NCBI GenBank assembly: GCA_965217675.1
Contig: OZ244559.1
Span: 2,243,216-2,307,215 of the forward strand
Direction: 5' to 3'
Origin: Dehalococcoidia bacterium
GTDB taxonomy: Bacteria; Chloroflexota; Dehalococcoidia; Lucifugimonadales; UBA1127
DNA: 64,000 nucleotides
Below the pieces are notes generated by a model, which was not told where the DNA came from, did not search any database, and saw only the letters and a list, made by a program, of their open reading frames with translations. The position numbers and the translations under genes were made by a program. Shown piece by piece: positions 21,542-60,969 of the stretch. Numbering within the stretch: position 1 is the stretch's first letter; each line of letters begins with the position of its first letter.

Positions 21542-21639
21542 CCTAGGGTTGTTTGCCAGAGGCCTCCACAACGGAATTTCCACCTATCCAGCCCTAATCG
21601 TTGTGCGCTGGAATAGACAACCAACCGTAGGAGACACCA

Positions 21640-22854: not shown

Positions 22855-22859
22855 AGAAG

Positions 22860-22897
22860 AGCGCCGCGTCCGGCAATCGGGCGCGGCGCTTTCAATT
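22860..22897 (+). terminator. Strong GC hairpin with a weak U tract between argJ and argB (possible partial terminator or processing site)
   Basis: A 13-bp stem (AGCGCCGCGTCCG / CGGGCGCGGCGCT, with one G-U pair) closes the loop GCAAT and is followed by TTCAATT. Confidence 0.3.
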
Positions 22898-22915
22898 GAG
22901 GCAACAGAGGAAACG

Positions 22916-23704: not shown

Positions 23705-23719
23705 GGCAAGGAGACGCTA

Positions 23720-27708: not shown

Positions 27709-27749
27709 GCATTCAACAGACACTCAATCGCACACTTGAAGGACGGGAG

Positions 27750-28952
27750 ATGGCAAAGCAGAAGGTGGTCTTGGCTTACAGTGGCGGTCTGGACACATCG
27801 GTGGCCATACCGTGGATAAAGGAGCACTACGACGCCGAGGTCATCACAGTGACAGCGGAGCTTGGGCAAGGCCGCGACCTTGAAGAGGTGAGGCTGAAGG
27901 CCCTGGCAACCGGCGCAGAGAAGGCCATTGTCCTGGACGGCCAGGACGCCTTCGTCGAGCGCTTTGTGTGGCCGGCCCTGCGCGCCGGCGCCATCTACGA
28001 GGCGCAGTACCCGCTGGCGACCGCCCTTGCGCGTCCGCTCATTGCGGAGTACCTGGCCAACGTTGCACTGGAAGAGGGAGCGGAGTTCGTCGCGCACGGC
28101 TGCACCGGCAAGGGCAATGACCAAGTGCGATTCGACGTGAGCGTGGGCGCGCTGGCGCCGCACCTGCAGGTCATCGCGCCAGCCCGCGAGTGGGGCATGA
28201 GCCGTGACGAGGAGATGGTCTACGCGGCCCAGCACAATGTTCCCGTCCCCAACACCAAGGACAGCCCCTTTTCCGTCGACGAAAACCTGTGGGGCCGCTC
28301 CATCGAGGCGGGGGTGCTGGAGGACCCGTGGAATGAGCCACCCGAGGAGATCTACGCATGGACCCGCTCCATGGCGGAGACGCCGGACGCTCCCCTGTAC
28401 CTGGAAATCGGATTTGAGCGTGGCATTCCGTTCTCGGTCAACGGCGAGACGCTGGGCGGCAAAGCGTTGGTGCTGCACCTGAACGCGCTGGCAGGCGAGC
28501 ATGGTGTGGGCCGCATCGACCACCTGGAGAACCGGCTGGTGGGCATCAAGTCGCGGGAGATCTATGAAGCTCCGGCGGGCGTCGTGCTACACGCGGCACA
28601 CCGGTCGCTGGAGACGCTGACACTGAGCCGTGACCAGATGCGGTTTCGGGAGCTGGTAGCGCAGCAATACGCCGAACTGGTGTACAACGGACTCTGGTTC
28701 TCTCGGCACCGGGAGGACTTGGACGCCTACGTGGACAGCATCCAGGACTTCGTGTCGGGCACGGTCCGGGTGCGGTTGCACAAGGGCACGTGCTCCGTCG
28801 TTGGTCGGCAGTCGCCACACGCGCTGTACGACTACGGCCTCGCAACGTACGACGAGGCGGACCAGTTTGACCACCAGGCGTCGGTGGGGTTCATCAAGGT
28901 ATTCGGGCTGCCGGTACGCACACAGGCCAAGCGGCAGCCGCGGCAATCGTAG
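27750..28952 (+). CDS. argG: Argininosuccinate synthase
   Basis: This is the in-frame part of ORF 27552..28952, with the start at ATG 27750 (MAKQKVVLAYSGGLDTSV). HGCTGKGNDQVRF is present. Confidence 0.95.
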   Translation: MAKQKVVLAYSGGLDTSVAIPWIKEHYDAEVITVTAELGQGRDLEEVRLKALATGAEKAIVLDGQDAFVERFVWPALRAGAIYEAQYPLATALARPLIAEYLANVALEEGAEFVAHGCTGKGNDQVRFDVSVGALAPHLQVIAPAREWGMSRDEEMVYAAQHNVPVPNTKDSPFSVDENLWGRSIEAGVLEDPWNEPPEEIYAWTRSMAETPDAPLYLEIGFERGIPFSVNGETLGGKALVLHLNALAGEHGVGRIDHLENRLVGIKSREIYEAPAGVVLHAAHRSLETLTLSRDQMRFRELVAQQYAELVYNGLWFSRHREDLDAYVDSIQDFVSGTVRVRLHKGTCSVVGRQSPHALYDYGLATYDEADQFDHQASVGFIKVFGLPVRTQAKRQPRQS

Positions 28953-28968
28953 GCAACCGGAGGGCGAC

Positions 28969-29277
28969 ATGGCAGACAAGTATGTGTACATCGCGGCAAT
29001 GGACGTGGACTCGGACAAGGAAGCCGACTTCAACGATTGCTATGACAATGAGCACGTACCCGCGCTGTTGAAGGTGCCGGGCGTGCTGAGCGCGAACCGC
29101 TATTGTGCGGAGGAGGGCTCGCCGAAGTACATTGCCGTGTACGAGATCGAGAGCCCGGACGTCGTGACGAGCGACGCGTGGGTGGCCGCGGCGGACTCAG
29201 GGCGCTGGCCAACGGAGATCCGGCCGTTCTGCCGGAACCGCAATCGAATCGTCTACAAGGCAATCGGCGGCGAGTAG
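28969..29277 (+). CDS. Small dimeric alpha/beta-barrel-like protein (EthD/DUF4286-like), function unknown
   Basis: This is the in-frame part of ORF 28801..29277, with the start at ATG 28969 (MADKYVYIAAMDVDSDKEADFNDCYDNEHVPALLKVPGVLSANRY...). The family assignment is pattern-level only. Confidence 0.55.
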   Translation: MADKYVYIAAMDVDSDKEADFNDCYDNEHVPALLKVPGVLSANRYCAEEGSPKYIAVYEIESPDVVTSDAWVAAADSGRWPTEIRPFCRNRNRIVYKAIGGE

Positions 29278-29314
29278 GGCGAGACCCCTCGGCGCGGGGA
29301 CGGCAGGCGGCACG

Positions 29315-29785
29315 ATGATCCACGACGGCAAGGACCGCTACGGGCGCTACCTGGAGGACTTCCAGGTGGGCGACGTCTACCGCCACTGGCCGGGCAAGAC
29401 CATCACAGAGAGCGACAACAACCTCTTTTGCCTGCTCACCATGAACCACAACCCCCTCCACCTGGACGAGAACGTCATGAAGGACCACCAGCACGGGCGC
29501 ATACTAGTTGCGGGCCCGCTGGTGCTCAGCGTGGCCGTCGGCATGAGCGTGATCGACACCTCGGGCCGGGCCATCGCCAACCTCGAGTACGAGAAGGTGG
29601 TGCACGACGGCCCGGTGTTCGCCGGCGACACCATCTACGCCGAAAGCGAAGTGCTGGAGGTGCGGGAGTCGGCGTCGCGGCCGGACCGGGGCGTCGTGTA
29701 CATCGAGACGCGCGTGCACAACCAGCGCCAAGAGCGGGTGCTGACCTACCGCCGCAGGTTCCTCGCCCCCAAGAGGCCGGCGTAA
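29315..29785 (+). CDS. MaoC-like (hot-dog fold) dehydratase / enoyl-CoA hydratase
   Basis: ORF 29315..29785 (156 aa). NNLFCLLTMNHNPLHLDE and GDTIYAESEVLEVRES are typical of MaoC dehydratase domains. The stop TAA overlaps the argH ATG (TAATG). Confidence 0.85.
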   Translation: MIHDGKDRYGRYLEDFQVGDVYRHWPGKTITESDNNLFCLLTMNHNPLHLDENVMKDHQHGRILVAGPLVLSVAVGMSVIDTSGRAIANLEYEKVVHDGPVFAGDTIYAESEVLEVRESASRPDRGVVYIETRVHNQRQERVLTYRRRFLAPKRPA

Positions 29786-31143
29786 TGGCGGACGAATATT
29801 CATCGCTGGACTACACGGCGTCGCTGCACTACGACTGGCGGCTCTACCGGGAGGACATCAGCGGTTCCCAGGCCCACGCCCGAATGCTCGCCCGCCAGGG
29901 CATCATCTCCGCTGACGAAGCCAATGGCATCTGCGCGGGCCTCGACGCCATCCGCCAAGAGATAGAGGACGGGTTTTTTCCGTGGCGGAAGGAGCTGGAA
30001 GACCTTCACATGAACGTGGAGGCGCGCCTCCACGACCTCATCGGCGAGACGGCCGGCAAGCTGCATACGGCCCGCTCCCGCAACGACCAGGTGGCGACGG
30101 ACATGCGGCTCTACGTGCGGCGCACGGCGGCGGAGACGGCCGACGCGCTGCGCGGGCTGCAGCGCGCACTGGCATCGGTGGCCGGCGAGCACGTGAACAC
30201 CGCCATGCCTGGTTACACGCACCTGCAGCGGGCGCAACCCGTGGTGCTTGCCCATCATCTTTTGGCCTATGTGGAGATGCTGGAGCGCGACGTGGAGCGG
30301 TTCCAACAGGCCGGCGCACGCGCCAACGTGATGCCGCTCGGCAGCGGCGCGCTGGCGGGGTCGCCGTACCCTCTCGACCGGGAGTCCGTCGCGGAGGAGC
30401 TCGGCTTCGACGGGGTCACGGCCAACAGCATGGACGCCGTGGCGGACCGGGACTTCGTGCTGGACTACCTATACGCCGCCTCGGCGTGCATGGCTCATCT
30501 CTCCCGCATGGGGGAGGAGTTCGTGCTGTGGTCGTCGGAGGAGTTTGGGTTCCTGCGGCTGGCGGATGATGACACCACCGGCAGCAGCATCATGCCGCAG
30601 AAGCGCAACCCTGACCTGGCCGAGCTTGCGCGCGGACGCACGGGGCGCGTCTACGGTCACCTCATGGGCATGCTCACGACTGTGAAGGGCCTGCCGCTCA
30701 CCTACAACCGCGACCTGCAGGAGGACAAGGAGGCGTTGTTCGACACGGTGGACACGCTCTTGCCGACGGTCTCGGCGTTCACACGGATGCTCGGCGGCGC
30801 GACCTTCAACCGCAAGCGCATGGCACAGGCAGCGGAGGGCGGCGGCTACAGCCTCGCGACGGACCTGGCCGACTACCTGGTGCGCAAGGGGCTGCCCTTC
30901 CGGAAGGCCCACGGCGTGGTGGCGCAGCTCACGCGCTACGCCGAGGACCGCGGCGCAGGGTTCGAAGACCTGTCGCTGGAGGACTACCGCTCGTTCTCGC
31001 CACTGTTTGACGAGGACGTGTTAAGCACGACGGTCGCGTCGGCACTGGATTCGCGAAACGTGCCGGGCGGGACGGCGCCGTCCCAAGTGGCGGCGGCGCT
31101 CCGGCGCGTGCGGGAACGGCTTGGCATGGAGCAGGAACCGTAG
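29785..31143 (+). CDS. argH: Argininosuccinate lyase
   Basis: This is the in-frame part of ORF 29428..31143, with the start at ATG 29785 (MADEYSSLDYTASLHYDWRLYREDISGSQAHARML). The GSSIMPQKRNPD signature is present. Confidence 0.9.
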   Translation: MADEYSSLDYTASLHYDWRLYREDISGSQAHARMLARQGIISADEANGICAGLDAIRQEIEDGFFPWRKELEDLHMNVEARLHDLIGETAGKLHTARSRNDQVATDMRLYVRRTAAETADALRGLQRALASVAGEHVNTAMPGYTHLQRAQPVVLAHHLLAYVEMLERDVERFQQAGARANVMPLGSGALAGSPYPLDRESVAEELGFDGVTANSMDAVADRDFVLDYLYAASACMAHLSRMGEEFVLWSSEEFGFLRLADDDTTGSSIMPQKRNPDLAELARGRTGRVYGHLMGMLTTVKGLPLTYNRDLQEDKEALFDTVDTLLPTVSAFTRMLGGATFNRKRMAQAAEGGGYSLATDLADYLVRKGLPFRKAHGVVAQLTRYAEDRGAGFEDLSLEDYRSFSPLFDEDVLSTTVASALDSRNVPGGTAPSQVAAALRRVRERLGMEQEP

Positions 31144-31337: not shown

Positions 31338-32663
31338 TTGGCACTCTTAACGCCGAACATAGTCAAGCGGAACACCAACAAGGTGTTCTTCGGCTGGTGG
31401 ATTGTCGCCGGGGCCATCGGCATTCAGTTCCTGCATGGCGGACTGCTATTCCAGGCCTTTGGCGCCTACTTCGTGCGGCTGCAAGAGGAATTCGGCTGGA
31501 GCCGCGCCACCCTCTCCTGGTCGTTCTCCCTGCTGCGCGTCGAGAGCGGGCTGCTGGGGCCGCTGCAGGGCTGGCTCATCGATCGCTTTGGGCCGCGGTC
31601 GGTGCTGATTATCGGGCTGATCATCTTTGCGATCGGGTTCATGTTGCTTAGCCGGATAGACTCGCTATTGACCTTCTACCTCGCCTTTGTCGTCATCGCG
31701 ATTGGCAGCGGGCTCGGTGGGTTCCTCACCCTCTTCGTTAGCGTCTCCGCCTGGTTCCGGCGCCGGCGGGCAACGGCGCTGGCGCTCTCGCAGATTGGGG
31801 GAAGCATCGGCGGGATTTTCGTTCCTCTTGTTGCGCTGGCCCTGATCAACTTCGGGTGGCGGGATACTGCATTCGCCTCCGGCATCATCATCTTGGTGGT
31901 GGGCTTGCCGCTGACGCCGCTGATGCGAGCGAGGCCGGAAAAATACGGGATGCTGCCGGACGGCGGCCAGCGTTTCGAGCGAAGAACGGTGGAGACGCGG
32001 GCGCCGATTGATCCCGAGCGGGAGTTCACGGCGCGGGAGGCGATGCGGACGCCGGCCTTCTGGTTCATCTCGATGGGGCACGGGAGCGCGTTGTTTGTGG
32101 TGGGCGCCCTGATGGTGCACCTGATCCCGCACCTGGTACAGAAGCTGGGCGTCTCGCTTGAATCGGCGGCGGCTGTGGTGACGGTGATCACGACGGCGCA
32201 GATTGTCGGACTGGTGAGCGGCGGGGTCCTGGGCGATCGGATGGACAAGCGGCTCATCGCGGCGGCGTGCATGGTGGGCCATACGGTGGCGCTGATTGGC
32301 ATAGCCTATGCGGGGTCCCTGTGGCTGGTATACGCCTTCGCCGTAATTCACGGGCTGGCGTGGGGCGCCCGCGGTCCGCTGATGGGGGCGATACGCGCCG
32401 ATTACTTCGGGGTAAAGGCGATTGGGACGATCATGGGGTTTTCGTCGCTCATCGTGACCGTCGGCAACGTGTTTGGGCCGGTATTCGCGGGATGGATGGC
32501 GGACGTGCGGGGCGACTACGAGACGGGGTTTGTAATACTGGCGGCGATGACCGGCGTCGGGACGGTGTTCTTCCTCGCGTCCAAGCGGCCGTCGCGGCCC
32601 GAGAGCACGTGGGCACGGGGCCGTCGGCTTGTCATGCAGCGGCGCGCGAGGGAGCGGGACTAG
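31338..32663 (+). CDS. MFS transporter (oxalate/formate antiporter-like subfamily)
   Basis: ORF 31338..32663 (TTG start as given by the track; the start is uncertain). It has about 12 predicted hydrophobic segments and the motif GWLIDRFGPR. Confidence 0.8.
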   Translation: MALLTPNIVKRNTNKVFFGWWIVAGAIGIQFLHGGLLFQAFGAYFVRLQEEFGWSRATLSWSFSLLRVESGLLGPLQGWLIDRFGPRSVLIIGLIIFAIGFMLLSRIDSLLTFYLAFVVIAIGSGLGGFLTLFVSVSAWFRRRRATALALSQIGGSIGGIFVPLVALALINFGWRDTAFASGIIILVVGLPLTPLMRARPEKYGMLPDGGQRFERRTVETRAPIDPEREFTAREAMRTPAFWFISMGHGSALFVVGALMVHLIPHLVQKLGVSLESAAAVVTVITTAQIVGLVSGGVLGDRMDKRLIAAACMVGHTVALIGIAYAGSLWLVYAFAVIHGLAWGARGPLMGAIRADYFGVKAIGTIMGFSSLIVTVGNVFGPVFAGWMADVRGDYETGFVILAAMTGVGTVFFLASKRPSRPESTWARGRRLVMQRRARERD

Positions 32664-32765: not shown

Positions 32766-34151
32766 ATGCCTTCGCGTTCTAGGAGAGTGGGAATTTCGGG
32801 TTTGACTACTCCGGACATACTTAAGAGGAACGCCAACCGCCTGTTCTATGGGTGGTGGATTGTCGCCGCGGCAATCGTCATTCAAGGTCTGCAGGGCGGC
32901 CTGTTGCTGCAGTCGTTTGGCGCCTACTTTCTGCGGCTGCAGGAAGAATTTGGGTGGAGCAGCGCAGCCCTTGCGTGGTCCTTCTCCATCCTGCAGCTGC
33001 AGAACGGTCTACTTGGCCCGGTGCAAGGCCTGCTTGTCGACCGGTTCGGTCCAAGGGTCGTGCTGACAGTTGGGGTAATCGTCCTTGCACTGGGATTTCT
33101 TATGCTCAGCCAAATCCAATCACTCTTGACGTTCTACCTGGCCTTTGTGGTCCTGTCGGTGGGATTTGGCCTGAGTGGGTACCTGACGCTCATCGTCGCC
33201 GTAGCAAACTGGTTTCAGCGCCGTCGTTCACTGGCGCTAGCGCTTTCCACGACGGGCTTGGGAATTGGCGGCATGCTGGTGCCCCTCGTGGCCATTTCCC
33301 TGAACTCCTTTGGATGGCGCAACACGGCCATCGCTTCATGCGCCATCATCCTCGCCGTGGGGCTGCCGTTGATGCCGATCATTCGCGGCAGACCCGAACG
33401 CTACGGCTTGCGACCGGATGGCGGTCCAGACCCGAGGGCAACCACCAACACCTCGCGGGCGGTGCAGACCGGACGGGACTTCACCGTAGGTGAGGCGATT
33501 CGCACGCCGGCGTTCTGGCTAATCTCCCTTGGTCACGGCAGCGCGTTGCTGGTGGTCGGCGCAATCATGGTTCACCTCATCCCCCACTTGGTGCACCGCC
33601 TGGACATGTCGCTGGAATCCGCGGCCCTCGTTGTCACGGTGATGACCATGACCTCCATGGTGGGACAGATCGGCGGAGGGCTCCTGGGCGACAGAATCGA
33701 CAAGCGGCTCATATGCGCGGCGGGAATGGTGGCGCATTGCGTGGCGCTCCTGGGAATCACGTTCGCCACGTCACTGGGCCTGGTCTACTTCTTTGCAATT
33801 CTCCATGGGTTGGCGTGGGGCGGCCGGGGACCACTCATGGGCGCGATTCGGGCCGACTACTTCGGGCGGCGGGCGCTGGGGACGATCATGGGGTTGTCTT
33901 CGGTCATTGTCACAATTGGAATCATGTTCGGACCGGTGTTTGCGGGGTGGATGGCGGATCTAAGGGGCGACTATCAGCTGGGTTTCGTTGTGCTGGCCAG
34001 CATGACAGGGCTGGCGTCAGTGTTCTTCCTGGCTGCGAAGAGGCCGCCACCGCCCACGCGCAGGTTGGCGGATATGCGAAGACGAGTCCTAGCGCGGCGG
34101 GAGCGGGAATCCGAACGGTGGGCGGAGGCCCGGAGCCGGGGGCAAGGCTAG
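32766..34151 (+). CDS. MFS transporter, tandem paralog of 31338..32663
   Basis: ORF 32766..34151. It is collinear with the upstream paralog from LTTPDILKRNANRLFYGWWIV onward. The true start may be TTG 32802. Confidence 0.8.
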   Translation: MPSRSRRVGISGLTTPDILKRNANRLFYGWWIVAAAIVIQGLQGGLLLQSFGAYFLRLQEEFGWSSAALAWSFSILQLQNGLLGPVQGLLVDRFGPRVVLTVGVIVLALGFLMLSQIQSLLTFYLAFVVLSVGFGLSGYLTLIVAVANWFQRRRSLALALSTTGLGIGGMLVPLVAISLNSFGWRNTAIASCAIILAVGLPLMPIIRGRPERYGLRPDGGPDPRATTNTSRAVQTGRDFTVGEAIRTPAFWLISLGHGSALLVVGAIMVHLIPHLVHRLDMSLESAALVVTVMTMTSMVGQIGGGLLGDRIDKRLICAAGMVAHCVALLGITFATSLGLVYFFAILHGLAWGGRGPLMGAIRADYFGRRALGTIMGLSSVIVTIGIMFGPVFAGWMADLRGDYQLGFVVLASMTGLASVFFLAAKRPPPPTRRLADMRRRVLARRERESERWAEARSRGQG

Positions 34152-37344: not shown

Positions 37345-37481
37345 GGCCTTCTCCTCTCAAATGCGCAGCCACCGCTGCAATGAATGTAGGGCGATGGTAG
37401 CCAGTGGGCAGTTGCGCTGTCAACAGCGAGGTGTCAGCACAGCAGCCCGGCGTGGGTGTTATGCTTGCCGCGGAGGCCTCC

Positions 37482-38999
37482 ATGAACGCTGACGACGCCG
37501 CCCAAGCGATACTGGACTACCACCGGCAAACCAACCACTCCGTGGAGAGTGTGCGGGCCGGCAATATCTCGCTAGACTTCTCCAACCTGCCGCGGCTGTA
37601 CAAGCTCTATCGACGAGCGGAGACCGTGCCGCTGCCGGAAGAGTCTGCGCCCTCGGGCGTGCCCGCGCTCGAAGCTATTTCGGGGGACGCGCCCACTCGA
37701 GACGGCGCGCCAACGCTGGAGGATGTGGCCGCGCTGCTCAAGCTCTCGGCGGGCATCACCAAATGGCTCAAGGTGCCCAACGGCCAGATGGCCTTTCGCG
37801 CGGCGTCCTGCACCGGCGCGCTCTATCACATCGAACTGTACCTGGTGTGCGAGGACCTACCGGGCTTGCCCGCCGGGGTGTACCAGTACGGAGCGCAGGA
37901 CAACGCGCTCCGTCGTGTGCGGTCGGGGGACTACCGTGGTGCGCTGGCGGCGGCGACGGCGGGCCACCCGGCGGTGGCATCCGCGCCGGTGACCATCGTG
38001 TACACGAGCGTCTTCTGGCGGAACGCGTGGAAGTACCAGAGCCGCGCCTACCGCCACGCCTACTGGGACTGCGGCACCATTCTTGCGAATACGCTGTCGG
38101 TGGCGTCGTCGCGGGGGCTGCCGGCACGGGTAGTCACGGGATTCGCGGACGACGCAGTGAACAAGGTCCTCGACGTCGACGGCGTGCGAGAGGCGGCCGT
38201 GGCTATCGTGCCCGTGGGCGGCGGAAGCACGCCCGTCACACCGACGCCCGCGCCTGAGCGGGTGAACCTCGAGACGATGCCCTACTCTCCAAAGGAGATT
38301 GACTACCCAATCATCCGCGCGACGCACACTGCCACGTCGCTGGACGAGGCGGGCGCGGCTGCGTGGCGGGCCATCGAGGGGAGCGCGCAAGCGGCGTCGA
38401 GTGCGCCGCTGACTGTCGAGGCGGGGGCAGAGTCCGTTGAGCGGGTGATCCTCCGGCGCGGGTCCACGCGACAGTTTCAGTTGGCGTCCATCGACGCCGA
38501 GGCCCTCCGCACGATGCTGGCCGCCGCCATGCGGCCGGTGCCGGGCGACTGGCCCTCACTCGACGGGGTCCCCGTCAACGGTCTGTACCTCATCGTAAAC
38601 AACGTCGACGGTTTGGCGCCGGGCGGGTACGTCTACCACGCGGAGGCAGGCGAGCTTGAGATGCTGCACTCCGGCGACCACCGCTTTATAGCGGGGCATC
38701 TGGGGCTGAACCAGGCGCTGGCCCACGACGCCGCGGTCAACTGCTACTTCCTCACCGACCTCGACGCCGTGACCGCCGCCATGGGCGCTCGCGGCTACCG
38801 CGCGGCGCAGCTTGACGCGAGCATTCGCGCGGGACGCCTCTACCTCTCCGCGTACTCGATGGGCCTAGGCGCGACGGGCCTCACCTTCTTCGACGACGAG
38901 GTGACGCAGTTCTTCTCGCCCCACGCGGCGGGCAAAAGCGTCATGTTCCTCACGCTGCTGGGCGTGCCGCAGAAGCGCTCGCGGGTCATGCCTGAGTAG
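37482..38999 (+). CDS. SagB/ThcOx-type nitroreductase-fold dehydrogenase, two tandem domains
   Basis: ORF 37404..38999. I place the start at ATG 37482, which has a GGAGG RBS (MNADDAAQAILDYHRQTNHS...LDFSNLPRLYKLY). The SagB-type N-terminal signature is followed by a second nitroreductase-like half (RRGSTRQF...). Confidence 0.75.
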   Translation: MNADDAAQAILDYHRQTNHSVESVRAGNISLDFSNLPRLYKLYRRAETVPLPEESAPSGVPALEAISGDAPTRDGAPTLEDVAALLKLSAGITKWLKVPNGQMAFRAASCTGALYHIELYLVCEDLPGLPAGVYQYGAQDNALRRVRSGDYRGALAAATAGHPAVASAPVTIVYTSVFWRNAWKYQSRAYRHAYWDCGTILANTLSVASSRGLPARVVTGFADDAVNKVLDVDGVREAAVAIVPVGGGSTPVTPTPAPERVNLETMPYSPKEIDYPIIRATHTATSLDEAGAAAWRAIEGSAQAASSAPLTVEAGAESVERVILRRGSTRQFQLASIDAEALRTMLAAAMRPVPGDWPSLDGVPVNGLYLIVNNVDGLAPGGYVYHAEAGELEMLHSGDHRFIAGHLGLNQALAHDAAVNCYFLTDLDAVTAAMGARGYRAAQLDASIRAGRLYLSAYSMGLGATGLTFFDDEVTQFFSPHAAGKSVMFLTLLGVPQKRSRVMPE

Positions 39000-39121: not shown

Positions 39122-40855
39122 GTGGCAACGGCACAGACAAACCCTGACTTGCTCTATCAGCCGGATGAGCAGCCTCCCCATTTGGCGTCGCTCGGCCTGG
39201 GCTTTCAGAGCGTCATGGGCCGGCTGGCGGCGATGGCGGCGACCGCATCCATCATAGCCGCGGCAGGAGGGCAGTCCGACAGCTACCTGTCATGGATCTT
39301 CTTTTCGGCGTTGGTCGTTTGTGGGCTGGGCACCAGCCTCCAGATTTACCGGATTTGGCGGTTCGGGTCAGGGTACGCGCTCAGCATAGTCTCCGGTACT
39401 GCGTTTATCGCGGTCTGCACCAGCGCGCTGTTGGAGGGCGGGCCGGCGATGCTGTCCAGCCTCATCGTCGTGTCAGCGGTGATCCAGTTCTTCCTGATCT
39501 CGCGGCTCTCGTTATTACGCCGGATTCTCACGCCGGTGGTGGCCGGCACGGTACTCATGCTGCTGGCGGCCACGAACTTGACGGTGGTGATGGGCAGGCT
39601 GTCGGACGTGCCGGAGGGGGCGTCGCTTGCCAGCGCTCCCATCGTCGCCGGCGTCACGTTGGTTGCTCTGTTGTCGCTGAGGCTGTTCGCCTCGGCGAAG
39701 CTGCAGCAATGGGCCCCGATCATCGCGATCCTTTTGGGCGGCGCGTTGGCAGTCCCGTTGGGTCTGTACGACCTGAGCAACGTCGCGGCGGCGGCCTGGG
39801 TCGGGATCCCCGAAGTCACTTGGGCCGGGTTCGACCTCAGCTTTGGCGCGTCGTTCTGGGCGTTACTGCCGGGGTTCGTCATCGTCAACCTCGCGTTGGC
39901 CGTCAACTCCACCAGCGACAGCGTCATCATTCAACAAATAGCGTGGCGCAGGCCGCGGGCCACTGATTTTCGGATGGTCCAGGGGGGACACTTTCTCGGC
40001 GTGCTGACCAATTTGCTCGCCGCCCTCGTGGGGACGCTGCCGAACAATATCGGCGCAGCCAGTTCGGCGCGGGTCGTCCTCACCGGGGTCGCCGCCCGGC
40101 GCGTCGGCCTGTACGGCGGCGCCATTCTGATAGCCGTGGCGTTTTCACCCAAGCTGGTAGCCCTCCTCATCGCCATTCCCCGTCCTGCGCTGGTGGCCTA
40201 CATGCTGTTCATGCTGTCTCTGCTCTTTGTGCAGGGCATGAGCACCGTTACCCGTGAGGGGTTGAGCGGGCGGAGGGCATCTGTAGTGGGAATCTCCCTC
40301 TGGATAGGACTGGGCATTCAGAATGATCTGATCTTCCCGGACCTTCTTACCGGTACGCTTGGGACATTTCTCGGCAGCGGCATGACCATGGGCGCCCTCT
40401 CGATCCTTCTGCTCAATATGTTGATGGAGGGGACCTCTTCCCGGGCCAAGCGTCTGAAGGTGGCGATGGGCCCCTCCGCCCTGCCCGAGATCGACGCGTT
40501 CCTGCAGGAGTATGCAACACAGACCGGATGGAACGACGAGTCCACCGACAGACTGCGTGCGGTAGGTGAGGAGACTGTGTCGAGTCTGCTGCCGGACGGC
40601 GACCTCGCGGCAAGCGATCGGCGAAACCTGACGCTCAGCGTGCGCCGCTCCGACGACAAGCTTGAACTGGAGTTCATGACCACTTCCGACGAGGAGAATC
40701 TGGAAGACCGATTGGCGTATCTGAGCGATCAGCCCGAGATCGGCATCGAGCGGGAAGTCTCATACCGCCTGCTGCAACACTATGCGTCGTCAGTCCAGCA
40801 CCGCAAGTACCACAACATCGACATCGTCACCGTGGAGGTCAAGGGAAGTCGCTGA
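39122..40855 (+). CDS. NCS2 (nucleobase:cation symporter-2 / xanthine-uracil permease) family transporter with an extra cytoplasmic C-terminal domain of about 140 aa
   Basis: ORF 39122..40855 (GTG start, 577 aa). About 430 aa of polytopic permease come first. A soluble tail follows (KRLKVAMGPSALPEIDAFLQEY...RLRAVGEETVSSLL...LTLSVRRSDDKLELEFMTTSDE...IVTVEV). Its secondary-structure pattern resembles RsbW/SpoIIAB-type GHKL domains, but it lacks their N and G boxes. Confidence 0.75.
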   Translation: MATAQTNPDLLYQPDEQPPHLASLGLGFQSVMGRLAAMAATASIIAAAGGQSDSYLSWIFFSALVVCGLGTSLQIYRIWRFGSGYALSIVSGTAFIAVCTSALLEGGPAMLSSLIVVSAVIQFFLISRLSLLRRILTPVVAGTVLMLLAATNLTVVMGRLSDVPEGASLASAPIVAGVTLVALLSLRLFASAKLQQWAPIIAILLGGALAVPLGLYDLSNVAAAAWVGIPEVTWAGFDLSFGASFWALLPGFVIVNLALAVNSTSDSVIIQQIAWRRPRATDFRMVQGGHFLGVLTNLLAALVGTLPNNIGAASSARVVLTGVAARRVGLYGGAILIAVAFSPKLVALLIAIPRPALVAYMLFMLSLLFVQGMSTVTREGLSGRRASVVGISLWIGLGIQNDLIFPDLLTGTLGTFLGSGMTMGALSILLLNMLMEGTSSRAKRLKVAMGPSALPEIDAFLQEYATQTGWNDESTDRLRAVGEETVSSLLPDGDLAASDRRNLTLSVRRSDDKLELEFMTTSDEENLEDRLAYLSDQPEIGIEREVSYRLLQHYASSVQHRKYHNIDIVTVEVKGSR

Positions 40856-41830
40856 TGTGCTGGCGTGAGTGTTTGCAGCAGTGCCCCTCGTGCCTATCGC
40901 GGGCCGCCGCCCTGACTCCACCCTGCTCAGCCCCGAGATGAAATTCTGCGCCGCTTGCGACAACGGCCTGCCTCGAAGGGTTACCACACCGGCAATCTCC
41001 TCCGCCAGAAGGTTCGGAAGCAGCAGGATGTCCAACTCCGCGGCGTCGCCGGGAGAGATGGCGATTTCCGGGAGAACGGAGATGCCCGCGCCGCCCGTCA
41101 TGTACTGCTTGATGGCCTCCATGCTGTCGGTTTCCACCGCGAGATCGTAGCTGATGCCCCGCTTGCGGAAGGCGTCGTCCAGCAGGTTGCGAGTGCGGGA
41201 AGCGGCTCTGAGCATGACCAGGGGCCACCGGGCAAGCGTGCTGTAGGAGATCTCCCGCTGGTCGGTTACCGGGTGACCCTTGGGCGCCGCCAGCACCCTG
41301 CGAATCGTGAACAGGGGAGCGAAGTCAAAGCCGACGGGGATGTCGGCGGTGGGCACGATGCCGAGGTCCGCCTCGCCCGACGCCACCTTCGCGAGGATGT
41401 CGGCCTCGCCCACGGACCAGAGGCGGAGCAGCGTGTCGGGGTACTTCTGGCGAAAGTTTCGCACGGGCCTGGGCAGCACCTGCGCGATGAGGGCGGAGGT
41501 GGTAACGGCGGTCACGGGACTCGTCTGCTCCAGGTCGAACCGGAAGGATTCCAGCGCGCCCATACCCTCCACCAGCGGGCCGGCCATCTCGAGCAGCACG
41601 GCACCGGCCGTCGTGAGTTGGACGGGCCGCTTCCCGCGAATGAGCATCTCCATGCCAACCTCCTCCTCCAGCCTCTTCAGGCGCTTGGTTGCCGCGGGCT
41701 GCCCCAGATTGAGGGCGCGCGCCGCCCCGGATATGCTGCCCAGTTTGGCGACAGCACAAAAGGTCCGCAGTTCCCGAAAGTCCAAATCTTCCCTCCGGAT
41801 GTATTCCCGATTGGAATTGACCATAGACAT
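40790..41830 (-). CDS. LysR-family transcriptional regulator
   Basis: This is part of ORF 40790..41935, with the start at ATG 41830 (MSMVNSNREYIRREDLDFRELRTFCAVAKLGSISGAARALNLGQPAATKRLKRLEEEVG). Its 3' end overlaps the convergent permease gene by 66 nt. Confidence 0.9.
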   Translation of the reverse strand: MSMVNSNREYIRREDLDFRELRTFCAVAKLGSISGAARALNLGQPAATKRLKRLEEEVGMEMLIRGKRPVQLTTAGAVLLEMAGPLVEGMGALESFRFDLEQTSPVTAVTTSALIAQVLPRPVRNFRQKYPDTLLRLWSVGEADILAKVASGEADLGIVPTADIPVGFDFAPLFTIRRVLAAPKGHPVTDQREISYSTLARWPLVMLRAASRTRNLLDDAFRKRGISYDLAVETDSMEAIKQYMTGGAGISVLPEIAISPGDAAELDILLLPNLLAEEIAGVVTLRGRPLSQAAQNFISGLSRVESGRRPAIGTRGTAANTHASTSATSLDLHGDDVDVVVLAVLD

Positions 41831-41839
41831 CGCTATGCA

Positions 41840-41869
41840 TTGACAACTAGCCGAATCAAAGGCGATACT
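41840..41869 (+). promoter_or_regulatory. Candidate promoter of the LysR-divergent operon
   Basis: TTGACA at 41840-41845, an 18-nt spacer, then GATACT at 41864-41869. The -35 lies 10 bp from the LysR start codon, which is the typical LysR divergent layout. Confidence 0.35.
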
Positions 41870-41915
41870 CCCCACTAACCAGTAGAATTGTGTGCACCGC
41901 GAAGGGAGGACTACC

Positions 41916-42797
41916 ATGGCAAAGTTCAGAATCATGCCCCACAGCCGCCTGCAGGAGTGGGTGGCCGAGGAGAAGGGGTACTTTACCGACGAGGGGTTGG
42001 ACTACGAGTTTATCCGTGGCCGGCAATTGTCCGCGCAGCCCTCTGTCACGTCCACGGACCAAGCGCCCGTCGAGGTCAAGCGGGGCGCATTTGAGGGGAT
42101 GTCCGAGGGCCGCGCGTGCGAGATCAGCTCCGCGTGCCACTGGGCCGTCAACATGGCCGCCCACGGACAGAGCGGCCGCATGTGGGGCCACGCCTACTCC
42201 GTGACGCCCTCCGGCATCTGGGTCGCCCCCGAGTCCGACATCCGGGAGCCCGAAGAGTTGGCCGGCGTGCCGGTGGCCGTCGGCTACCACTCCGGCAGCC
42301 ACTTCTCGGCAATCCAGGCGCTGGAGCCCTTCCTGTCCAAGGAAGACATCAACCTGCAGTTTGTCGGCGGGCCGGTGGACCGCGCCCAGCTCTCGCTGGA
42401 CCGCAGGGTGCAGGCCGCCAACGTCTTCGGCACGCCTTCGTACGTGCTGGAGCAGCAGGGTTTCCGCAAGGTTGTGGACACCAGCTTCATGATCGGCTTC
42501 CTGATCAACGGCGACGCCACCGACGAGCAGCTCTGGGCATATTTCAACGCCCTGCAGCGCGCGCAGCGGGAGATTGACGTTGCCAAGGAGAAGTACCAGC
42601 ACTACTTCCTCACGGAGATCCCGGAGAAGTTCAAGCCGTACTTCAACTACCGCAAGGCCGGCATCGGCGAGCGGCTGGTCTTCGAGCCGTACACGCAGGA
42701 GACCTTCGAGCGGACGCACCGGTGGATGGTCGAGTGGGGCATCTTCGGCGAGGACCAGGTGGGCCACGCCTCGTACGCAGAGGCGGTCCACGCCTAA
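41916..42797 (+). CDS. Cytoplasmic NMT1/THI5-like (type 2 periplasmic-binding-protein fold) protein, function unknown
   Basis: ORF 41892..42797. I place the start at ATG 41916, which has a GGGAGGA RBS (MAKFRIMPHSRLQEWVAEEKGYFTDEGLDYEF). There is no signal peptide. The family call is pattern-level only. Confidence 0.55.
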   Translation: MAKFRIMPHSRLQEWVAEEKGYFTDEGLDYEFIRGRQLSAQPSVTSTDQAPVEVKRGAFEGMSEGRACEISSACHWAVNMAAHGQSGRMWGHAYSVTPSGIWVAPESDIREPEELAGVPVAVGYHSGSHFSAIQALEPFLSKEDINLQFVGGPVDRAQLSLDRRVQAANVFGTPSYVLEQQGFRKVVDTSFMIGFLINGDATDEQLWAYFNALQRAQREIDVAKEKYQHYFLTEIPEKFKPYFNYRKAGIGERLVFEPYTQETFERTHRWMVEWGIFGEDQVGHASYAEAVHA

Positions 42798-52903: not shown

Positions 52904-53161
52904 CTAGAACAAGCTGCCCGTCGTCGCGAAGGCCGAGCCTGCCGGCAGCGTGGCGACCTCGAGCGAAATGCGGGCGCCACGCTCGCGGCCGCGACTGTAG
53001 AGCTGGCCCACCATGCGAGCGGCCTCCTCCGCGTCGACGCAGAGCGACTTGCCGCTAGCCACGCCGGTGCCCTCGTCGAGGACGCTGACGCGCAGCTGGT
53101 CCTCAAAGCCCTCGAGCCGCTGGAGCTTGATCTGGATGCGCTCTTCCGTCATGGTTGCCAT
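52904..53161 (-). CDS. Small hypothetical protein (85 aa)
   Basis: This is part of ORF 52904..53227. I place the start at ATG 53161, which has a GGAGG RBS 9 nt upstream (MATMTEERIQIKLQRLEGFEDQL...). The longer start at 53227 would lie upstream of the predicted promoter. Confidence 0.45.
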   Translation of the reverse strand: MATMTEERIQIKLQRLEGFEDQLRVSVLDEGTGVASGKSLCVDAEEAARMVGQLYSRGRERGARISLEVATLPAGSAFATTGSLF

Positions 53162-53193
53162 TTCGCTTGCCTCCGTTCGGAATGTCTGGAGGT

Positions 53194-53234
53194 ATTTTAG
53201 AACATAGTTTCTTAGTTTGTCAAACATGTGTTCT
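53194..53234 (-). promoter_or_regulatory. Near-consensus promoter overlapped by two LexA (GAAC-N4-GTTC)-like dyads
   Basis: The minus strand reads TTGACA (53223-53218), an 18-nt spacer, then TAAAAT (53199-53194). The dyads are AGAACATAGTTTCT (53199-53212) and CAAACATGTGTTCT (53221-53234). Each has one half-site mismatch, and their centres are 22 bp apart. Confidence 0.4.
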
Positions 53235-53240
53235 GAAACG

Positions 53241-53501
53241 AAGGGGCGGCGGGGCTTGGGAAGGGCCTCGATAGCAGGAGGCGAGGTTCCCGCCTGCGCG
53301 GGAACGACGGGGTAGGCGTACGCGGGGGTGCGCGGGGGCTGGTGGTGAAGGGAGACCCTTCGACAGGCTCAGGGCCAACGGATTCGCGAAACGGGCCTGT
53401 AACGGATTGGGTTAGGTCGTCTTGCGTCGCGATACGGTCTGCAGGGACGGCACGAGGGACTTGAAGTACTCGTAGGCGTGGGAGGCGCGGCGCTCCCAGT
53501 C
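53241..53501. repeat. Left copy of a direct repeat of about 230-260 bp flanking the S51 peptidase gene
   Basis: It aligns with 54364-54585 through AAGGGGCG..., GAGGTTCCCGCCTGCGCGGGAAC, family A (53356-53381) and GGATTGGGTTAGGTCGTCTTGCG...CGCTCCCAGTC. This left copy carries an extra insert of about 40 bp. Confidence 0.85.
53412..53501 (-). pseudogene. Duplicated 3' fragment (29 codons + stop) of the class II aldolase gene
   Basis: The reverse translation is DWERRASHAYEYFKSLVPSLQTVSRRKTT*. The aldolase C-terminus is DWERRASHAYEYFRSLVPSLQTVARRKTT*. It has no start codon and lies 3 nt from the S51 stop codon. Confidence 0.75.
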
Positions 53502-55324: not shown

Positions 55325-55786
55325 TCAGCGATTGCCGCCGCGCGCTTCCTTGCCGACTCTGTAGAGGTAGTGGCCGAGGAGGAGCACGAAGGTGGCGAGG
55401 ACGACGTGGAAGAGGGCGGGCAGGCTTCGTGCGAACCACTCTACGTCGGTCAGGAACGTGAGCCCGGCGACGAGTCGAATCGCCATGACGGCGAAGTAGG
55501 CGCCGCCGAGGATGAAGCAGGCGTTGTGCTTCCACGATGCGGGTCGCACGGCGTCCGCTCGCACGAGGAAGAGCACCCGGGCAAGCAGTGCGATGATTGC
55601 CACCTGCGTCGCGAGGAGCAGGGGGTAGGGCAGGGCGGAACCTTGCCAAGCGTCGAAAGAGGGCAGGAACGGGACAGGGCCCACCCACTGCACCACCTGC
55701 GCCAGCACTCGCAGGACGAACAGCACTGTGAGCGCGGCCATCCAGGGCAGGTAGCGGCTATGGATGGGGGTCGTGTCTTTGTTCAT
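55325..55786 (-). CDS. Hypothetical integral membrane protein (about 4 TM)
   Basis: ORF 55325..55786. It has four long hydrophobic segments. I recognise no family. Confidence 0.5.
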   Translation of the reverse strand: MNKDTTPIHSRYLPWMAALTVLFVLRVLAQVVQWVGPVPFLPSFDAWQGSALPYPLLLATQVAIIALLARVLFLVRADAVRPASWKHNACFILGGAYFAVMAIRLVAGLTFLTDVEWFARSLPALFHVVLATFVLLLGHYLYRVGKEARGGNR

Positions 55787-55890
55787 CAGTGCGAGACCAG
55801 GTCAGCGTACCAGACGAAAGCGCCACGATTGAGAGCAGGTTACACTATTGGGCGCACTGGCAAGTCGCCGTTCTAACAGGGAAGTGTGAT

Positions 55891-56533: not shown

Positions 56534-59251
56534 TTAGCCGGCGGCGGGGATTTCCTCGGGTTCCGTGACCTTGACGACCTTGACGGCGCAGGCCTTGAAC
56601 TCGGCTGTCTCCGTTACCGGGTCGTGGGCGTCTGTGGTGAGGATGTTGGTCAGCACGCCCTCCGGGAAGTGGAAGGTCATGAAGACGACGCCCTCTGGCG
56701 ACTTGTCGGTGATGATGACGTTCAGTTGCAGGCTGCCTCGGCGCGAAGAGATTTCCACGAGGTCGCCGTCCACGATGCCAAGCGCAGCCGCGTCGTCGGG
56801 GTGGACCTCCAGGCCCTCCCGAGGGACCAGCAACTCGAAGCCTTCGACGCGGCCCGTCTGGGTGCCTGTGTGGTAGGTGGCGCGACGGCGACCCGTCGTC
56901 AGGATGAGCGGGTACTCCTCGTCCGGCGGCTCCGCCAGGTCGACGTGGGGCACGGGCTGGAAGTAGCCCTTCTCCGAGAAGAACTCCTCCTTGTGCAGGT
57001 ACGGCGTGCCGGGGTGGTCTGTGGTGGGGCACGGCCACTGGATGCCCTGCAGCCGGATGCGGTCGTAGTTGATGCCCGCCAGGATGGGCGAGTTCCGCGC
57101 CTGCTCGTCCCAGACCTCGCTGGCGTGGTTGTAGTGGAGCGGGTAGCCCATGCGGTTGATGATTTCGAGGAAGATCTCCCAGTCGGAGCGGGCCTCGCCG
57201 GGGGGCTCGACAGCCTTGTTGAGGAGCTGCACGCGGCGCTCGGTGTTCGAGAAGGTGCCGTCCACCTCGGCGAAGGCGGCTGCGGGCAGGACGATGTCCG
57301 CCATCTTGGCGGTGTCGGTCAGGAACATGTCCTGCACGACGAGGAACTCGACCCTGTCCAGCGCCGCGCGGGTCTTGAGCACGTTGGCGTCGGACACGGC
57401 GGTGTTCTCACCCATGATGTACACGACGCGGACCTTGTCCTCGAGTATTTCGTCGAGAATGGAGATCTTGGTCTTGCCGGGGTTGGGGTCGATGGGGACG
57501 CCCCACTCGCGCTCCCATGCCTCGCGCGCCTCAGTGTTGCTGATGCGCTGGTAGCCGGGCAGGTAGTTGGGGGTGCACCCGGCGTCGCCGGCGCCCTGCA
57601 CGTTGTTCTGGCCACGCAGGGGGTTCACGCCGGCGCTCTCCATGCCGAAGTAGCCGCACAGCAGCCCGAGGTTGGCCAGCGACTGCACGTTGTGGACGCC
57701 GCAGGAGTGCTCCGTGATGCCTAGGGTGTAGATGATGGCAGCATTGCCGGCGGTGGCGTACTCGCGGGCGGTGTCGATGATGTCCTGCGCGGGGACGCCG
57801 GAGATCTTCTCCGCGACCTGCGGGGTGTAGCCCTTCACGAACTCCGCCAGCTCCTCGATCCCCTCGGTGCGGCGCTCCACGTATTCCTTGTTGTAGAGCC
57901 CCTCCTTGATGATGACGTGGGCCATGGCGTTGTAAAGGGGAATGTCAGTGCCGATGCGCAGGCGCAGCCAGCGGTCGGCCAGGCCGGTGAGCTCGATGCG
58001 GCGCGGGTCCGCGACGATGAGCCTCGCGCCCTTGGAGACGGCCCGCTTCACGCGGAGCGCCAGCACGGGGTGGGTTTCCGTGGTGTTGGTGCCCGTGGCG
58101 AAGATGAGCTTGGCGTTCTCCAACTCGGCGATGGAGTTGGTCATCGCGCCGCGCCCGACCATGACCGCCATACCGGCGATCGTGGGGGCGTGTCAGGTGC
58201 GCGAACAGTTGTCGATGTTGTTGGTGCCGATGACGGCGCGGGCCAGCTTCTGCATGAGAAAGTTGCCCTCGCTGGGGGCGCGGGCCGAACTCCACAGGGC
58301 GAAGGCGTTGGGGCCGGACTCGGCCTTCACGGTCTGGAACTTGTCGACGAGCAGGCTCAGGGCCTCCTCCCACGTCGCGGGCTGCAGGACGCCGTCCCGA
58401 CGAATGAGCGGGGTCTTGAGGCGGTCGGGGCTTCGAATGAAGTCGATGCCGAACTGGCCCTTGACGCAGAGCGAACCGGCGCTGGCGGGGGCGTCCCAAT
58501 CGGGCGTCACGCCGATGAACTCGCCGTGGGCGACGTTCAGCTCGATGCCGCAACCGGTGCCGCAGAAGGGGCAGATGGAGCGCACCTTGGTGACGTCCTC
58601 CGCCACTGCCTTGCCGAGCATCTTCCGGTCCATGAGCGCGCCCGTGGGGCACGTCTGGATGCACTGGCCGCAGAAGGTGCAGTTGCTGCCCAAGAGGCTC
58701 TCGTGGAAGGGCGCGACGATGTTCGTGCCGAAGCCGCGGCCCTCCGGGATGATGGCGTGGGCCTGCTCCAGCTCGTTGCAGACGCGGGTGCAGCGGTAGC
58801 ACAGGATGCACTGGGAGTAGTCGCGGGCGATGAAGGGGTTGGTGTCCTCCGGGATGCGGCCGCTGATGGCGCCGTCGTAGTAGTCCGTCGCGACGCCGTA
58901 GTCACCCGCCAGCGAGTGGAGCTCGCAGGGGCCGCGCTCGATGCAGGAGCGGCACTCCTCCGTGGGGTTCTCGGAAAGGACGAGCTTGAGGATGGTCTTC
59001 CGGTTCTCCTCCAGCTCGTCGTCGCTGGTGGTTACGTTCATGTCGGCCTGCAGGGCGTGGGCGCAGGACGCGACGGGCAGCCGTCGGCCATCCACCTTCA
59101 CGACGCACAGGCGGCAGCTCGCGGAGGGGTCGACGCGGGAGTCGTAGCAGAGGGTCGGGACATCCGCGCCGCAACGCCGGGCGGCTTCGAGGATGGTCTC
59201 GCCGTCCTGCAGCTCGACCTTGTTTCCGTCTATGGTTGCCGTGACACTCAT
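56534..59251 (-). CDS. fdhA: NAD-type formate dehydrogenase alpha subunit (2Fe-2S / 4Fe-4S / molybdopterin domains) with an in-frame UGA read as selenocysteine
   Basis: ORFs 58193..59251 and 56534..58171 are in the same frame. They are separated only by TGA (58195-58193) plus 7 sense codons. The junction reads NNIDNCSRT-U-HAPTIAGMAVMVGRGAMTNS, aligning with the active-site (C/U)H of formate dehydrogenases. The N-terminus has NuoG-like Fe-S motifs, and the C-terminus has the molybdopterin-binding beta-barrel. Confidence 0.85.
58159..58195 (-). promoter_or_regulatory. UGA codon plus candidate bacterial SECIS hairpin
   Basis: The mRNA reads UGA CACGCCCCCAC GAUCGCC GGUAU GGCGGUC AUGG. A 7-bp stem starts 11 nt after the UGA. 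It can be extended by A-U, C-G and C-G after one mismatch. The loop contains GGU, at the same codon position as the GGU in the loop of the E. coli fdhF SECIS. Confidence 0.6.
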
Positions 59252-59313: not shown

Positions 59314-60969
59314 TTAGATAAAGTGGCAGACGCCAGCCGGGCAGACACCCTGACGGTGGGCTTCCAACTCCTCGCCGAAGAATCGCACCAGACCGTGCAA
59401 GACGAGCGGCGCCGCCTGCCCAAGCCCGCATGCGGAGTTGGCCGACATGGCCGCGCCGATCTCGTTGAACTCGTCCATCATGCTCGGCGACGGCTCTGCG
59501 CGGCCGGTGAGGGCGTCGAGGCGCTCTCGGAGGCGGACGGTGCCGACTCGACAGGGGAAGCACTTGCCGCAGCTTTCGGCCTCGTAGAAGAGCATGCAGG
59601 TGCGCACGAGGTCGACCACGCAGCAGGCGTCGTCGAACACCACGACGCCGCCGGAGCCGAGCGCAAAGCCGTGCTGCCGAGGCGCGGCGTAGTCAAGGGG
59701 CATGTCCAGGTGCTCGGCCGCCAACAGGCCGCCGGAGATGCCGCCGAGGGTGTATCCCTTTACCCTGCGGCCGGGCAGCGCGCCGCCGCCCGCGCCCTCG
59801 ATGAGCTCACGGGCCGTGACGCCGAGAGGGAGCTCGTAGGGGCCGGGGCGGGCCACGCGGCCGCTGACGGAGTAGAGCTTGGTGCCGGCGTTATCGTCCC
59901 GCCCCAGCGACCGGTACCAGTCTGCGCCGCGCTCCAGGATAGATGGCACGGAGCAGAACGTCTCGACGTTGTTGATGACGGTGGGCAGACCCCACAACCC
60001 CTTCTGCGTCGGGAAGGGCGGGCGCTCACGGGGCCAGGGCACGAGGCCCTCCAGCGAGTTCAGCAGCGACGTCTCCTCGCCGCACACGTAGGAGCCAAGA
60101 CCCCGCGCGACCTGCAGGTCGAAGTTGAACGCGCCGCCGAGGGCGCCGTCGCCTATGAGCCCGGCGGCCTCCGCCTCCGCGATGGCCTCGTTGAGGACGT
60201 CGCAGGCCTCCGGGTACTCGTAGCGGAGGTAGATGACGCCCGCCGTGGCGCCGACGACGTGGCCGGCGATGGCCATGGATTCGATCAGGAGGTGGGGATT
60301 GAGGTGGAGCAGCGGACGGTCCTTGAAGGTGCCCGGCTCGCCCTCGTCGGCGTTGCAGACCACGTACTTCTGGTCGCCGGGGGTCTCGCGGACGGCCTGC
60401 CACTTGGCGGCGAGGGGGAAGCCCGCGCCGCCGCGGCCTAGGAGGCCGCCAGCACGCAGCGTTTCGAGCGCGTCGGCGTCGGCGTCCTGCTCGACCAGGC
60501 GGCGAAGCTGCGCGTAACCGCCGTTGGCGCGGTAGACGTCAAGGTTGCGGAGGCCGGGCGTGCGTATGTCGCGAAAGAGGACCTCCTCCACGCCGTCGAC
60601 AGCGTCGGCGGGCGGTGGCGGCGGCAGGAACGGGTCGGCGGCTGTGCCACGGAAGCGGCCATCGGCGAGCGTCGCGGGGGCCTGGTCGCACAGGCCGGGG
60701 CAGGCGATGCCCTCGCCGGGCGTGCCGCGTCCCACGCCGACCCCAGGGAGGCAGCAGGCGGGGCCGCCGCACGTGCCCTCTCGCAGCAAGTGGTCCTTGC
60801 CGAGGTTGGAGTAGTGGTAGAAGGAGGCAGCCTGGTGGACATAGGCCGGGGAAATCTTGAGGGCCTTTGCGATGCCGTTCAGGGTCTCCTCTGACATCAT
60901 GCCGGGTTGCTCCATGGCGTCATGGAGCATCGGAAGGAACGGCGCATGGGCCCTGGTGCTGTCTGCCAT
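59314..60969 (-). CDS. Formate dehydrogenase beta / NADH dehydrogenase subunit (fused NuoE-like + NuoF-like, FMN and NAD binding, 4Fe-4S)
   Basis: This is part of ORF 59314..61005, with a probable start at ATG 60969. GLLGRGGAGFPLAAKW, CNADEGEPGTFKDR and ESCGKCFPCRVGT are present. Confidence 0.85.
   Translation of the reverse strand: MADSTRAHAPFLPMLHDAMEQPGMMSEETLNGIAKALKISPAYVHQAASFYHYSNLGKDHLLREGTCGGPACCLPGVGVGRGTPGEGIACPGLCDQAPATLADGRFRGTAADPFLPPPPPADAVDGVEEVLFRDIRTPGLRNLDVYRANGGYAQLRRLVEQDADADALETLRAGGLLGRGGAGFPLAAKWQAVRETPGDQKYVVCNADEGEPGTFKDRPLLHLNPHLLIESMAIAGHVVGATAGVIYLRYEYPEACDVLNEAIAEAEAAGLIGDGALGGAFNFDLQVARGLGSYVCGEETSLLNSLEGLVPWPRERPPFPTQKGLWGLPTVINNVETFCSVPSILERGADWYRSLGRDDNAGTKLYSVSGRVARPGPYELPLGVTARELIEGAGGGALPGRRVKGYTLGGISGGLLAAEHLDMPLDYAAPRQHGFALGSGGVVVFDDACCVVDLVRTCMLFYEAESCGKCFPCRVGTVRLRERLDALTGRAEPSPSMMDEFNEIGAAMSANSACGLGQAAPLVLHGLVRFFGEELEAHRQGVCPAGVCHFI

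Follow-up and report, generated by a model that had tools for sequence, protein, structure and literature searches.

In a 64,000-nucleotide stretch of the genome of a Dehalococcoidia bacterium (contig OZ244559.1; hereafter the window), two neighbouring open reading frames (ORFs) on the minus strand at 56534-59251 very probably form a single formate dehydrogenase (FDH) gene, fdhA, whose codon 353 is a UGA that would be decoded as selenocysteine (Sec) under the direction of a hairpin immediately downstream. Among bacterial selenoproteins, the FDH alpha subunit is the classic one and the most widespread, and the arrangement seen here is a textbook one that standard gene callers break into two. 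We infer selenocysteine insertion because the UGA and its selenocysteine insertion sequence (SECIS) element are both under selection and because the machinery for selenocysteine has been published for other Dehalococcoidia.

One reading frame across an in-frame UGA

The ORFs at 58193-59251 (352 aa) and 56534-58171 lie in the same frame, with a lone TGA at 58195-58193 between them. Joined, they specify 905 residues followed by a TAA stop, for a gene length of 2718 nt, and the protein context around the UGA reads ...NIDNCSRT-[UGA]-HAPTIAGM...GAMTNS. The GC content at third codon positions (GC3) was 0.93 on either side of the UGA, with 552 open codons downstream of it, and this UGA was the sole in-frame TGA in the window to have coding composition on both flanks.

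When residue 353 (U353) was entered as cysteine, the joined protein matched the NCBIfam Fdh-alpha equivalog TIGR01591 at 791.2 bits, above the curated cut-off of 666.25, and its Pfam domains were Fer2_4, NADH-G_4Fe-4S_3, Fer4_Nqo3, Molybdop_Fe4S4, Molybdopterin (residues 277-699) and Molydop_binding. The best matches among solved structures were all FDHs, namely FdhF of the hydrogen-dependent carbon dioxide reductase (HDCR; 7qv7), Rhodobacter capsulatus FdsA (6tg9), the tungsten-containing FDH of Methylorubrum extorquens (M. extorquens W-FDH, 7vw6) and Escherichia coli FdhH (1aa6), with the match to FdsA running end to end (residues 3-898 with 25-937). In a pairwise alignment with E. coli FdhH, U353 corresponded to U140, His354 to His141, Arg546 to Arg333 and Lys264 to Lys44, while the cysteines of the proximal 4Fe-4S cluster, Cys227, Cys230, Cys234 and Cys262, aligned with Cys8, Cys11, Cys15 and Cys42. 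The protein also carries a NuoG-like N-terminal Fe-S module, and its gene adjoins one for a NuoF/NuoE-type diaphorase, both of which are features of FdsABG-like enzymes (Pfam; 6tg9 match). These matches identify the predicted product as the catalytic alpha subunit of a cytoplasmic molybdenum (Mo)- or tungsten (W)-bis-pyranopterin FDH, and the enzyme is probably NAD(P)-linked. A preliminary description of this DNA had proposed one gene rather than two ORFs, with the UGA at the position where FDHs carry the Cys or Sec that ligates Mo or W; its coordinates and sequences were all right, and both proposals agree with the single TGA in a shared frame, the TIGR01591 score and the alignment of codon 353 with SeCys140 of FdhH.

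We then compared the gene with homologues from a scan of species-representative genomes. The closest were four Dehalococcoidia loci (L001-L004), three of them on complete chromosomes, whose proteins were 92-98% identical to that of the window; a metagenome contig encoding an 83% identical protein (L084) was found separately from the genome scan. All five relatives carry TGA at the same codon. Among the homologous loci of the genome scan (80), TGA was counted in 57 and TGT or TGC in 24, a sum one above 80. The ratio of nonsynonymous to synonymous substitution rates (dN/dS) relative to L001-L004, at synonymous divergences (dS) of 0.15-0.40, was 0.05-0.17 before the UGA and 0.06-0.14 after it, and thus the 552 codons past the apparent stop are maintained as protein. 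The longest invariant nucleotide run of the gene in the window and L001-L004 was 41 nt (gene positions 1054-1094), a run that starts 3 nt ahead of the UGA and ends 5 nt beyond the hairpin; over the gene as a whole, by contrast, 38% of third-codon positions vary. The hairpin of L084 is flanked by five synonymous changes, and within it the only change is A16 to G, which keeps the pairing with U32.

These comparisons bear directly on whether the TGA is instead a nonsense mutation or sequencing error that arose from a Cys codon (TGC or TGT) and left the gene dead or truncated. Although a single substitution would turn the Cys codons of 24 homologues into TGA, and no sel genes were seen in the window, the same TGA is present in five independently assembled relatives at the dS values given above, the sequence downstream of it has a low dN/dS and a coding GC3 over its whole open length, and the SECIS hairpin goes with the UGA. 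A pseudogene is thus extremely improbable, being effectively refuted by the conservation of, and purifying selection on, the sequence downstream of the UGA. The preliminary description had named close relatives with a Cys codon and no conserved hairpin as the observation that would speak against its proposal; what we found is that relatives 83-98% identical all have both the TGA and the hairpin, and that the hairpin is missing from distant, Cys-type homologues.

It is also conceivable that the locus makes two proteins, with termination at the UGA yielding a 352-residue Fe-S protein and re-initiation at the AUG at 58171, 8 codons past the UGA, yielding a 545-residue molybdopterin protein. Public protein sets indeed carry only fragments of this lineage's fdhA, which their gene calls split at the UGA: P0001 (locus L085, 351-1988) is a 545-aa protein in a cluster of 105 members from ENA, and P0002 (L084, 3570-6287) is a 536-aa protein beside a 352-aa call from the NCBI metagenome GCA_041294365.1. 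However, such a split would cut the Pfam Molybdopterin domain and leave both products without the metal ligand. Moreover, the AUG lies within the hairpin loop with no Shine-Dalgarno sequence upstream, the codon is CUG in most UGA-type homologues and hence not a conserved start, and the 21 nt from the UGA to the AUG are conserved as coding sequence. We regard two separate products as highly improbable.

The hairpin and the decoding of the UGA

The SECIS hairpin begins exactly 11 nt past the UGA (CACGCCCCCAC). Its 7 pairs include a single U-G wobble. Counting the U of the UGA as nt 1, U17 is at 58179, G23 at 58173 and U24 at 58172, and the GGU of the loop is codon +7 past the UGA, as it is in the E. 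coli fdhF sequence with which we compared it (UGA CAC GGC CCA UCG GUU GCA GGU). The hairpin therefore has the E. coli register, with the 11-nt spacer and the position of the GGU both as proposed in the preliminary description. In E. coli, U17, G23 and U24 are the SelB contacts, and the 17-nt upper stem-loop lies 11 nt from the UGA (PMC8659212).

To assess covariation, we aligned 55 UGA-type homologues, drawn from many phyla, over the UGA and the next 51 nt, without gaps. Across columns 15-21 and 27-33, 94.9% of cells held standard pairs, with the six inner pairs formed in every sequence (100%), and both-sided, compensatory changes were seen in 6/7 pairs. None of 500 shuffles reached the observed covariation on any of the five measures used, and registers shifted by 1-3 columns scored far lower. 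Pair 18-30 was C-G in 33 homologues, G-C in 17 and unpaired in none; each of these columns is a third codon position at which the change is synonymous (GUC/GUG and GCG/GCC), and the swap therefore cannot be put down to constraint on the protein. U17, G23 and U24 were invariant in all 55 sequences. In the 24 Cys-type homologues (TGT/TGC), by comparison, the same columns were just 39.9% paired and G23-U24 occurred in none, and therefore the hairpin is confined to UGA-type homologues. We conclude that the hairpin is a genuine RNA element under selection and that it strictly accompanies the UGA.

The Rfam model SECIS_3 (RF01989) matched the window at this site. At gathering thresholds, Rfam returned nothing in the window and no SECIS in 14 related loci, and 0/12 other UGA-type FDH loci scanned reached the SECIS_3 gathering threshold; the score of the window was the highest among the FDH loci tested, with L033 at 41.3 bits and L006 at 39.5 bits. 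The SECIS_3 gathering threshold is too strict for these FDH elements, and E-value mode was used instead. An extended lower stem, present in both the minimum free energy fold and the Rfam model, was considered and dropped, as most of its pairs are unpaired in other homologues; the bulged-U register of the SECIS_3 model is likewise unsupported by the homologues.

Several observations weigh against decoding of this UGA as selenocysteine. The SECIS_3 score of 52.6 is below the gathering threshold of 63. The folding z-score of the hairpin relative to shuffled sequences was just -0.79, its stability being ordinary for sequence of 66-70% GC; because folding energy alone is unremarkable, the significance of the hairpin rests on comparison, that is, on the SECIS_3 E-value, the covariation and the unique in-frame TGA. 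The predicted fold also pairs U17, with G31 here and with A31 elsewhere, whereas this nucleotide is bulged in E. coli. Finally, tblastn searches with E. coli SelA, SelB and SelD gave no match in the window or in any related locus searched, and ARAGORN detected no tRNA, and so no tRNA-Sec (selC), in the window or in L001-L004, L084 and L085. NCBIfam scans of 30 window ORFs likewise gave no sel genes, but housekeeping genes only, including mutS, glpX, fmt, dnaA, panB, argJ, argD, argG, argH and leuC. The absence of sel genes from the window says nothing, because it covers 64 kb of a genome of ~2.7 Mb. One further candidate, a LysR regulator at 40790-41935, matched a selenium metabolism-associated LysR model at 128 bits against a cut-off of 250 and was treated as a generic LysR.

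Within the class, Dehalogenimonas alkenigignens has been reported to have selC, selA, selB and selD together with a Sec-containing FDH (PMC4918011), and Dehalococcoidia metagenome-assembled genomes are among the selenoprotein-richest bacteria in BSepDB, some with 46-49 selenoproteins (PMC13326102).

We also considered whether the UGA is read without selenocysteine machinery, either because UGA is reassigned genome-wide to Trp or Gly or because SECIS-independent read-through inserts Cys or Trp. The rarity of TGA as a stop (5/34 ORFs, against 75% in other high-GC loci) and the lack of sel genes in the window are both in keeping with such decoding. Against it, this is the only in-frame TGA of the window that is flanked by coding composition on both sides; past the TGA stops at 44779 and 55325, the composition is non-coding. 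Moreover, the codon falls at the one position where FDHs have Sec or Cys, and a SelB-type hairpin with an invariant G23-U24 is maintained by selection. Decoding of this kind is very improbable.

The stop-codon usage of the lineage was examined as a subject in its own right. The 34 compositionally supported ORFs of the window ended in TAG (20), TAA (9) or TGA (5), and the same script applied to high-GC loci of other phyla gave 75% TGA (154 TGA, 39 TAG and 13 TAA). These counts give a binomial probability of the order of 1e-13 for at most 5 TGA stops in 34 at p = 0.75. In L084 (1-16287, 57% GC), TGA accounted for 1/13 stops. TGA is thus strikingly avoided as a stop in this lineage despite a GC content of 57-66%. 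The avoidance is not a genome-wide reassignment of UGA: apart from the one in the FDH gene, no in-frame TGA of the window has coding signal on both flanks. That it represents a genome-wide adaptation of termination to heavy decoding of UGA as Sec, through a large selenoproteome and/or weak activity of release factor 2, seems unlikely, although if true the clade would be a natural case of UGA partly withdrawn from termination. We found no relevant literature linking stop-codon usage to selenocysteine in Chloroflexota.

The partner gene, related enzymes and a proposed mechanism

The gene directly upstream of fdhA, recognized as a NuoE/F-fused partner in the preliminary description as well, has four Pfam domains (Table 1) and matches NCBIfam nuoF_fam at E = 2e-130. 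A gap of 62 nt separates it from fdhA, its ATG at 60969 is preceded by GGAG, and the two genes probably form a two-gene operon. The order of NuoE/NuoF fusion and fdhA is repeated in L084. Neither the 352-aa fragment nor the NuoEF protein had a record in look-ups by exact sequence.

Table 1. Coordinates of fdhA, its UGA and hairpin, and the partner gene in the window.
Feature	Position	Strand	Description
fdhA	56534..59251	minus	Single coding sequence of 905 codons plus TAA; predicted Sec-containing formate dehydrogenase alpha subunit with NuoG-like N-terminal Fe-S module
In-frame UGA	58193..58195	minus	Residue 353, read as putative selenocysteine, Mo/W ligand; basis: alignment to SeCys140 of E. 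coli FdhH
SECIS apical hairpin	58163..58181	minus	GAUCGCC (58181-58175) / loop GGUAU (58174-58170) / GGCGGUC (58169-58163)
Rfam SECIS_3 (RF01989) match	58140..58198	minus	Model positions 1-59, 52.6 bits, E = 2.6e-11; includes unconserved lower stem
fdhB-like NuoE/NuoF fusion	59314..60969	minus	2Fe-2S, FMN/NAD(P)H-binding, 4Fe-4S; Pfam 2Fe-2S_thioredx, Complex1_51K, SLBB, NADH_4Fe-4S

Several characterized systems resemble this one in part. E. coli FdhH (fdhF) is 42% identical over 673 aligned residues, with the catalytic and 4Fe-4S residues matched, but is without the 220-residue NuoG-like N-terminal Fe-S module and is partnered with hydrogenase 3 rather than with NuoE/F. At the RNA level, the fdhF SECIS shares the spacing, the position of the GGU and the three SelB contacts described above, while differing in having a GGUC loop and a bulged U17 in place of the GGUAU loop and predicted paired U17 of the window. 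The FdsABG enzymes of R. capsulatus and Cupriavidus necator have the NuoG-like module and the NuoF- and NuoE-type partners, in addition to the end-to-end alignment with FdsA. In contrast, FdsA has Cys at the active site (motif CARVCHSPT), with no UGA and no hairpin, as in the 24 Cys-type loci, and FdsB and FdsG are separate polypeptides that are fused in the window. By description, the NADP-dependent W/Se FDH of Moorella thermoacetica is alike in having two subunits, a Sec-containing alpha subunit (FdhA) with N-terminal Fe-S domains and a NuoE/NuoF-like beta subunit (FdhB). Likened by description as well, the FDH DEALK_19115 of D. alkenigignens belongs to the same class and was reported with an in-frame UGA and a putative SECIS (PMC4918011), although the organism of the window belongs to a high-GC, uncultured Dehalococcoidia lineage. 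The SECIS of the window follows E. coli rules and the use of selenocysteine in Dehalococcoidia is known already; the locus adds nothing new on the mechanism of decoding.

Modelled on E. coli fdhF, decoding would proceed as follows. As the ribosome nears the UGA, the hairpin 11 nt downstream would offer the GGU of its loop (G23 and U24), together with U17, to the C-terminal domain of SelB, and SelB, carrying GTP and Sec-tRNA(Sec), would compete with release factor 2 to bring selenocysteine into the A site. In the folded enzyme, Sec353 would ligate Mo or W beside His354 and Arg546, and electrons may travel by way of the 4Fe-4S cluster and NuoG-like Fe-S chain to the fused NuoE/NuoF partner, which would carry the flavin and nicotinamide site. 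Overall, the scheme would be that of an NAD(P)-linked enzyme of the FdsABG or Moorella type, and within it the insertion of selenium, the binding of SelB, the metal and the electron acceptor are all predictions from sequence.

Surrounding genes and consequences for annotation

Directly after fdhA, on the same strand, is a 158-aa ORF at 55325-55801 (minus), and a 154-aa ORF lies further downstream at 52904-53368 (minus). Both have coding composition, neither had a Pfam or NCBIfam match, and a homologue of the former (149 aa) is called in L085. Approximately 23 kb from the FDH operon are tandem major facilitator superfamily (MFS) transporters of the L-lactate / oxalate-formate antiporter type (31338-32663 and 32766-34151, both plus), and this pair might supply or export formate or other monocarboxylates.

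Elsewhere in the window, dnaA at 9552-11039 (plus; TIGR00362, E = 2e-131) indicates that the window adjoins the chromosomal replication origin; the cumulative GC skew climbs monotonically over the window, and the record of a relative, OX638292.1, has the FDH 64-74 kb from its start. The genes argJ, argD, argG and argH occupy 21631-31143 (plus), broken by a gene for a 932-aa conserved membrane protein at 23705-26503 that matches PRK02509 and PRK00068. A SagB-family peptide dehydrogenase domain at 37404-38999 (plus; TIGR03605, E = 8e-51) hints at a maturation gene for a ribosomally synthesized and post-translationally modified peptide (RiPP) or at a nitroreductase-like one.

As regards FDH itself, the sole new point is that this lineage's gene is present in public protein sets just as fragments, of 352, 536 and 545 residues, with the nearest full-length entries only ~46-52% identical among the matches listed. 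The annotation accordingly changes from two fragments to one 905-codon protein, as the preliminary description had also concluded. Because only fragments are on record, a functional formate dehydrogenase / CO2 reductase would be absent from metabolic reconstructions of these Dehalococcoidia. The gene also marks the organism out as probably using selenium.

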